IMG/VR virus record: IMGVR_UViG_2534681835_000030 | DNA: 4,533 nt | Origin: a virus | Lineage: Duplodnaviria; Heunggongvirae; Uroviricota; Caudoviricetes | Strand: one strand, 5' to 3' | Shown: positions 3,259-4,217 of the stretch, one piece after another | Numbering within the stretch: the stretch's first letter is position 1 | Layout of the letters: each line of letters begins with the position of its first letter | Program-made: the position numbers and the translations under genes | The notes under the pieces: generated by a model | Database searches by the model: none | What the model saw: only the letters and a program-made list of their open reading frames with translations | What the model was told of the DNA's origin: nothing

Positions 3259-4217
3259 ATGAAAATTTGTATCGACGACGGCTCCACCAACATCAAGCTG
3301 GCATGGACTGAGAACGGCGAACGCCGCAACGCCATCAGCCCGAACAGCTTCAAGTCGGAATGGTCTGCGCCATTCGGTGGCACGCAGCCCGCGAACTACA
3401 TGCTTGATGGCGTGCGCTATGGTTTTGATCCGGTCAGCGATCGCTTTGTCCAGACGACCGACACGCAATACCAGTACAGCGATGTGAATGTAATTGCCAT
3501 TCATCACGCGCTGGTCAAATCAGGCATCACACCACAGGAAGTGGATGTGGTTGTCACCCTGCCACTGAGCGAGTATTTCGATACAAACGCACAGCCGGAC
3601 ATGGCCAACATCAACCGCAAAAAGCGAACGTTATGCGCCCGGTGGAGTACCAGAACGGCGAAGCATTCACTATCCGTAACGTGCGGGTTATGCCTGAATC
3701 CATTCCGGCTGGCTTTAAGGCACTGGCTGACATGAGTCCGTTTGAATCCCTGCTGATTGTGGATTTGGGCGGAACCACGCTGGATGTGGCAAAGGTTCAG
3801 GGGCAGCTGGCAGGTATCAGCCAGGTGTTTTGCGATCCACACGTAGGCGTTTCCCTGATGGCTGATGCCGTGCTGTCGGTGATGGCCACTAACGGTATGC
3901 GTACCAGTCACCACATCGCCAATACCATTATTGAGCACCGTCACGATGAAGCCTGGCTGCGCCAGCACATTCACAATGACGCGCATTACAACAGCCTGAT
4001 GGCGGTTATTCGTGAAAAGGAGGAGACACTGAAACAACGAGTGATCCGCGCGCTGGCGGGTTTTTCCGGTTACGGGCGGGTGATGGTTGTCGGTGGAGGG
4101 GCGGAGATTGTGGCACCCGCTATCCGCGAAGCCTGCGGAGTTAATGCGACTTTCATCACGGACGGGGTGCCACAATTTGCTCTGGTTAATGGGCTGTACG
4201 CAATGAACAAGGAGTAA
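3259..4217 (+). CDS. parM: ParM/StbA actin-like plasmid segregation ATPase (type II partition), about 320 aa if read through; interrupted by an apparent -1 frameshift at the A5 run 3619-3623
   Basis: The N-terminus MKICIDDGSTNIKL and the internal SPNSF, YSDVNV, HHAL, MPESIPAG, DLGGTTLD and VVGGGAE motifs are collinear with R1 ParM as I recall it. RBS AAGGA at 3246-3250 lies 8 nt before ATG 3259. Frame 1 (3259..3735) carries the N-terminal half and frame 3 (3633..4217) the C-terminal half. Inserting one A in 3619-3623 gives ...ANINRKKANVMRPVEYQNGEAFTIRNVRVMPES..., which matches ParM ...ERKKANF...TFTIKDVKVMPES. Confidence 0.88.

Follow-up and report, generated by a model that had tools for sequence, protein, structure and literature searches.

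In the draft genome of Escherichia coli DEC8E (GCA_000249875.2) a parM gene is split into two open reading frames at a run of five adenines, and the replication gene that precedes it is broken up as well. Are these two maintenance genes decaying in the bacterium, or were they broken only in the assembly? The stretch of DNA analysed here (4,533 nt, hereafter the window) coincides letter for letter with positions 6743-11275 of contig AIGJ01000039.1 (L009), and its gene products appear in DEC8E as EHW30083, EHW30084 and EHW30085. Along the window lie, in this order, a small ORF, a gene for a P2 gpA-type replication endonuclease (rep), parM, and a ParR-like gene of the Plasmid_stab_B family; some 870 nt past this last gene the contig ends (Table 1). 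This module is part of an integrated prophage of the P88 type (Xuanwuvirus, Peduoviridae, P2-related) that adjoins btuC, and not of a plasmid; P88-like phages match the window at 94-96% identity. Being integrated, the element needs no ParM for its stable maintenance. Matches to the window occur in 1,444 of 5,426 complete E. coli genomes, where 1,639 of the 1,641 places are chromosomal. The rep-parM-parR array of those complete genomes has an intact parM. An actin-like plasmid-partition system has no evident role in a P2-like phage that integrates, and a search of the literature for ParM in the genus Xuanwuvirus gave nothing of relevance.

Table 1. Features of the window discussed in the text, in order of position (nt; position 1 is the first letter of the window)
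Feature	Position	Strand	Remarks
P2 gpA-type replication endonuclease gene (rep)	344..3182	+	Split into 317-1657 (frame 2) and 1641-3182 (frame 3)
Copy-2-like block	466..1063	+	22 of 22 discriminating sites as in copy 2; flanks as in copy 1
T5 run in rep	1580..1584	+	Private 1-base deletion; T6 in both 8E copies, 95NR1 and CH427
A5 run in rep	1597..1601	+	Private 1-base deletion, 17 nt past the first; A6 in both 8E copies, 95NR1 and CH427
Palindrome 1, 20 nt, ACGGGACTCACAAATCCCGT	3132..3151		-127 from parM start; candidate ParR-binding (parC-like) site
Palindrome 2, 20 nt, ACGGGATTTCAGAATCCCGT	3205..3224		-54 from parM start; second candidate parC-like site
N-terminal parM ORF	3259..3735	+	Frame 1, 158 aa; = EHW30084.1, 'stbA family protein [E. 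coli DEC8E]'
parM overall	3259..4217	+	959 nt here, 960 nt in relatives; repaired, a 319-aa actin-like segregation ATPase
Copy-2-like block	3372..3603	+	8 of 8 discriminating sites as in copy 2; ends 16 nt before the A5 run
A5 run in parM	3619..3623	+	Single-base deletion splitting parM; A6 in every A6-bearing relative examined
C-terminal parM ORF	3633..4217	+	Frame 3, 194 aa from first ATG; end of StbA_N plus full ParM C-terminal domain
parR-like gene	4222..4533	+	103 aa, intact; Pfam Plasmid_stab_B, E 9.8e-24; identical to WP_000211267.1 of both 8E prophages

The original prediction was that parM is split by loss of one base from an A-run that should have six members, and the sequence bears this out: positions 3611-3630 read tcaaccgcAAAAAgcgaacg, and the site itself lies in the context ...ATCAACCGC AAAAA GCGAACG.... 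Eight aligned relatives have A6 here (P88, Chuche, phages 520873 and 503458, copies 1 and 2 of the prophage in E. coli 8E, 95NR1 and CH427). An uninterrupted parM ORF of about 320 aa, absent in the draft, is present in both 8E copies and in all annotated relatives except phage 503458. The assignment of the N-terminal half of ParM to frame 1 and of the C-terminal half to frame 3 likewise agrees with the way in which the Pfam domains are divided. The frame-1 ORF, whose final 37 aa are out-of-frame read-through past the A5 run, matches StbA_N (PF06406, E 3.7e-64) over positions 1-126 of the domain; the frame-3 ORF matches StbA_N positions 126-157 and contains the whole ParM C-terminal domain (PF21523, E 4.9e-69). 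Addition of one A, which had been expected to rebuild a ParM like that of R1, does so, giving a 319-aa ORF without an internal stop. Residues 2-316 of the repaired protein align with residues 2-318 of R1 ParM (1MWK; E 7.8e-93), and at the lesion ...NINRKKANV... stands opposite ...NIERKKANF... in R1. The repaired ParM is 2 aa away from that of copy 1 in strain 8E and 3 aa away from that of copy 2.

For rep the outcome was different. Its frameshift had been taken to be of opposite sign to that in parM, but rep in fact carries two -1 deletions, one T6>T5 and one A6>A5, whose net effect of -2 imitates a +1 shift. When both runs are repaired, rep encodes 946 aa with no internal stop. Because both rep deletions are -1 changes in six-nucleotide runs, all three lesions of the window are alike in sign and type. 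In P88, Chuche and the RefSeq genomes examined, rep (2823-2841 nt) and parM (960 nt) are each a single intact ORF.

The best match to the window among the 5,426 complete genomes is CP077465, from E. coli O111:H8 strain 8E. Over its initial 7,207 nt (L009 1-7207), which include selO, ydiV, nlpC, btuDEC and the left end of the prophage, the draft contig shows no substitutions and no indels relative to CP077465. From the name, the serotype, the 100% identity over 7.2 kb and the complete lack of private substitutions, we infer that strain 8E is very probably DEC8E itself; a search of the literature on the strain and the two genomes turned up no statement of the platform used or of 8E being DEC8E. 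Strain 8E has two P88-like prophages, copy 1 beside btuC and copy 2 near yecA/tyrP, which are about 97% identical over rep-parM-parR. Both have A6 in parM, and in both rep and parM are intact (2841 nt and 960 nt, respectively, in copy 1).

The prophage on the btuC side shows peculiarities of its own (L009 5221-6199; L005 1479-2457). Its integrase has 259 aa, as against 329 aa in contig ROAO01000034.1 (L008), and this truncated integrase gene abuts or overlaps a shortened DUF4761 gene, with no repressor or cox genes between them. The immunity region thus looks to have been lost, and copy 1 is probably defective, to judge from its gene content.

Differences private to the draft were counted in a three-way alignment of the draft with copy 1 and copy 2 of strain 8E. 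Every substitution that sets the window apart from copy 1 proved to be the copy-2 base, leaving no private substitution in 4,533 nt. The only private differences in the window are the three shortened runs, T6>T5 at 1580-1584 and A6>A5 at both 1597-1601 and 3619-3623; one further private difference, an A insertion, lies beyond the window. What the substitutions reveal instead is an alternation of blocks: 1-433 follows copy 1, 466-1063 copy 2, 1114-2969 copy 1, 3094-3143 copy 2, 3171-3227 copy 1, 3372-3603 copy 2, 3632-4168 copy 1, and 4175 copy 2. There are at least seven such switches within the window, and switching carries on to the end of the contig (L009 to 12149). The segment 440-1090 of the window is 100% identical to copy 2. 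The parM run itself lies close to a junction, the first discriminating site past it (3632) being that of copy 1. Homology between the two copies starts at about window position 20, and the draft stays with copy 1 for some 450 nt more before it switches. Such a pattern would be expected if uniquely anchored reads had resolved only the edge of the repeat and its interior had been built as a mixed consensus, and the patchwork is probably an assembler chimera rather than a product of gene conversion.

The reading that we prefer is that A5 is a sequencing or assembly artefact and not a sign of gene decay. We put its probability at roughly 0.88, a figure tempered by the fact that the length of the run in DEC8E DNA is taken from the assembly and that 8E is equated with DEC8E by deduction. 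The two near-identical prophages would have been merged during assembly, stretches of copy 1 alternating with stretches of copy 2, and within this poorly resolved region three six-nucleotide homopolymers, two in rep and one in parM, would each have been called one base short. A5 would then stem from faulty base calling or consensus building for the DEC8E draft of 2012 and would not exist in the bacterium, and the miscalled runs would have given rise to apparent pseudogenes. On this view the P2 gpA-type replication endonuclease gene and the type II (ParM/ParR/parC-like) partition module are in truth both intact. The DEC drafts are presumably 454-based or mixed. Several observations are as expected of an artefact: each lesion is a one-base change in a six-nucleotide run, none is present in CP077465 (8E, presumed to be the same strain), and homopolymer indels exceed point differences, with three private deletions against no substitutions. 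Of the two explanations originally put forward, sequencing error and real decay of both maintenance functions, the first is thus strongly favoured and the second finds no support.

Is the error general to the assembly or confined to this region? A count of homopolymer lesions elsewhere had been suggested as a check, in the expectation that many would indicate a sequencing artefact; over the 12 kb compared, the window does show an excess and the flank shows none. Three of the nine six-nucleotide runs in the window are shortened by one, and none of its nine five-nucleotide runs is altered. In the 7.2-kb flank that is identical to 8E, there are no altered runs at all among 11 of 6 nt or more, 29 of 5 nt and 79 of 4 nt. 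The contrast between 3/9 and 0/11 is weakly significant (one-sided Fisher p about 0.07). Since the errors fall in the two-copy mosaic while the flank is clean, the distribution points to a collapsed-repeat consensus. It is also what speaks against a uniform, platform-wide undercalling of homopolymers across the assembly, unrelated to the two-copy repeat. Undercalling of that kind would account for all three lesions being -1 changes in six-nucleotide runs, and loss of one base from a homopolymer is the classic signature of flow-based and of some long-read chemistries; given, however, that the adjacent 7.2 kb is unchanged in every class of run and that the errors coincide with the copy-mixing region in the 12 kb of assembly compared, we regard it as very unlikely.

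The distribution of A5 in other genomes and assemblies bears on the same question. An exact match to the 58-mer of the window that spans the A5 run was found in none of the 1,114 complete E. coli genomes holding the site, and among the matches listed for complete E. coli genomes the best ones span 59 nt, that is, they have A6. The parM A6 run is nevertheless read as A5 in at least 19 other contigs inspected. A public cluster of 14 truncated stbA/ParM sequences includes 13 of 158 aa, and the exact 158-aa product of the window occurs in 14 contigs representing at least six different DNA backgrounds. Ten Mb-scale, GenBank-only assemblies (L020-L029; GCA_0532916xx, GCA_0396151xx and GCA_045584115.1) carry a 158-aa variant (P0003) in nearly the same prophage. 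Over 12.5 kb they differ from one another at 98 indel columns and 24 substitution columns; runs of at least 3 nt account for 81 of these indel columns, and the way in which rep, parM, portal and terminase are broken up varies among the assemblies. Two contigs (L014 and L016) are one A short in the A6 run at window positions 3117-3122, and another (L017) has two more indels near the parM site, including an A6>A5 loss. The possibility that A5 is in general a real recurrent allele was rejected because its carriers show these further homopolymer indels. To judge from such contigs, the parM A6 run is a recurrent miscall site in public assemblies, and none of the carriers examined gave clean evidence of a real A5 allele.

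One A5 carrier, ROAO01000034.1, is otherwise well assembled, and is identical to a second contig (L013; Logan, run SRR8095637). It differs at a second poly-A run as well, having A6 where the closest complete relative has A7; that relative has a 92-aa ORF at this place, but in the contig no gene is called. (The two sites are at 3630 and 10360 of the contig.) It may represent a true A5 allele or one more data set prone to error.

Two RefSeq phage records also call for comment. In both NC_049344 (L001, phage 520873) and NC_049341 (L002, phage 503458) rep is fragmented. In the 503458 record parM, portal and terminase, too, are each broken into a number of ORFs, and this region has lost 10 nt at one place and 1-2 nt at several others. 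Both records are probably error-laden.

If decay were real, the sequenced DEC8E stock would carry slippage deletions in a cryptic, defective prophage, and the copy-2-like blocks would have to be gene conversions. There is something to be said for this. Homopolymer slippage, a common true mutation, is the commonest real indel mechanism; copy 1, with its short integrase and without repressor and cox, is a setting in which rep and parM may be dispensable and selection on them weak; and the 158-aa truncated product does recur in other assemblies on at least six DNA backgrounds. We nonetheless consider decay unlikely. It leaves three private -1 deletions in six-nucleotide runs, two of them only 17 nt apart, to be set against no private substitutions whatever, and neither the deletions nor the mosaic are seen in the finished genome of 8E, very probably the same strain. 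Gene conversion would also have had to produce seven or more alternating tracts within 4.5 kb in a single laboratory lineage, which is implausible. The recurrence of the truncated product is offset by the further homopolymer indels in the other A5 carriers examined and by the lack of the A5 58-mer in any of the 1,114 complete genomes; this last result, together with the lack of private substitutions, also means that the locus does not have the look of an inherited pseudogene.

A real A5 need not abolish ParM if the protein were still made by a -1 ribosomal slip on C_AAA_AAG or if the A-run acted as an on/off switch. The codons at the site are suitable, in that a slip on CGC AAA AAG followed by GCG AAC GTT would give the wild-type ...RKKANV..., and -1 slippage is known at A_AAG and A_AAA_AAG in dnaX of E. 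coli and in IS3-family elements. There are only five As, however, and they do not form a canonical X_XXY_YYZ heptamer. Nor is there a downstream structure, the 89 nt from the site having a minimum free energy of -22.5 kcal/mol that is indistinguishable from that of shuffled sequences (z = -0.08). The two-frame layout occurs in none of the 1,114 complete genomes, and the annotated relatives (except phage 503458) have a single 960-nt ORF. We judge this to be the least probable of the readings. A programmed -1 frameshift site was accordingly rejected, there being no heptamer, no fold beyond chance and no conservation of the layout. A related idea is that A5 is real in DEC8E, and perhaps also in ROAO01000034.1, with the A6/A5 tract serving as a slippage switch or as a low-level -1 site that tunes ParM in P88-like prophages; this seems more doubtful even than uniform undercalling.

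With the artefact reading preferred, EHW30083, EHW30084 and EHW30085, the DEC8E products of the split parM and rep, are no evidence that this prophage has lost replication or partition. The biological significance of this is small, but it matters for annotation. Repeated miscalls of the A6 run have created a cluster of truncated 'stbA/ParM' proteins in the protein collection. Where the genome of the strain itself or of a sister strain has been finished, comparing the number of private substitutions with that of private homopolymer indels, together with a check for paralogous copies open to merging, is a quick test of artefact versus decay.

How does the repaired module compare with known systems? 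A ParR-like adaptor gene lies directly 3' of parM, as in a type II partition locus. Upstream, two palindromes of the form ACGGGA-N8-TCCCGT each lie inside a 42-nt direct repeat (3116-3157 and 3189-3230); they have the same offsets in several relatives and are found nowhere else in the loci checked. The 42-nt repeats with their palindromes are a candidate parC/operator for the ParR-like protein. The module resembles ParM/ParR/parC (StbA/StbB) of R1 in the full-length homology of ParM, in its StbA_N and ParM C-terminal domains, and in having a small Plasmid_stab_B gene downstream of parM; the repeated palindromes upstream may be the counterpart of parC. Unlike R1, it resides in an integrated P2-like prophage and has only two upstream 20-nt palindromes, and in the draft its parM is split at an A-run; the parC of R1 consists of ten 11-bp iterons.

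There is a further likeness to gp16-gp18 (rep, parM and the partition protein) of Escherichia phage P88 (NC_026014), which has the same rep-parM-parR order and a parM of the same length class, and whose DNA is 94.4% identical over window positions 3200-4533. P88 differs from the DEC8E draft in having A6 and a single intact rep (2823 nt) and parM (960 nt). As to the lesions themselves, one-base errors in mononucleotide runs that split genes are shared with the 503458 and 520873 records and with the Mb-scale GenBank contigs; unlike in those error-laden records, their density in the DEC8E draft is far lower (three in 4.5 kb) and they are in a merged two-copy region. The parM site is like the A_AAA_AAG sites of dnaX and the IS911/IS3 family in that an A-run is followed by G and a -1 shift restores the frame, and unlike them in having five As rather than six, no stimulatory structure, and a split state that is not conserved.
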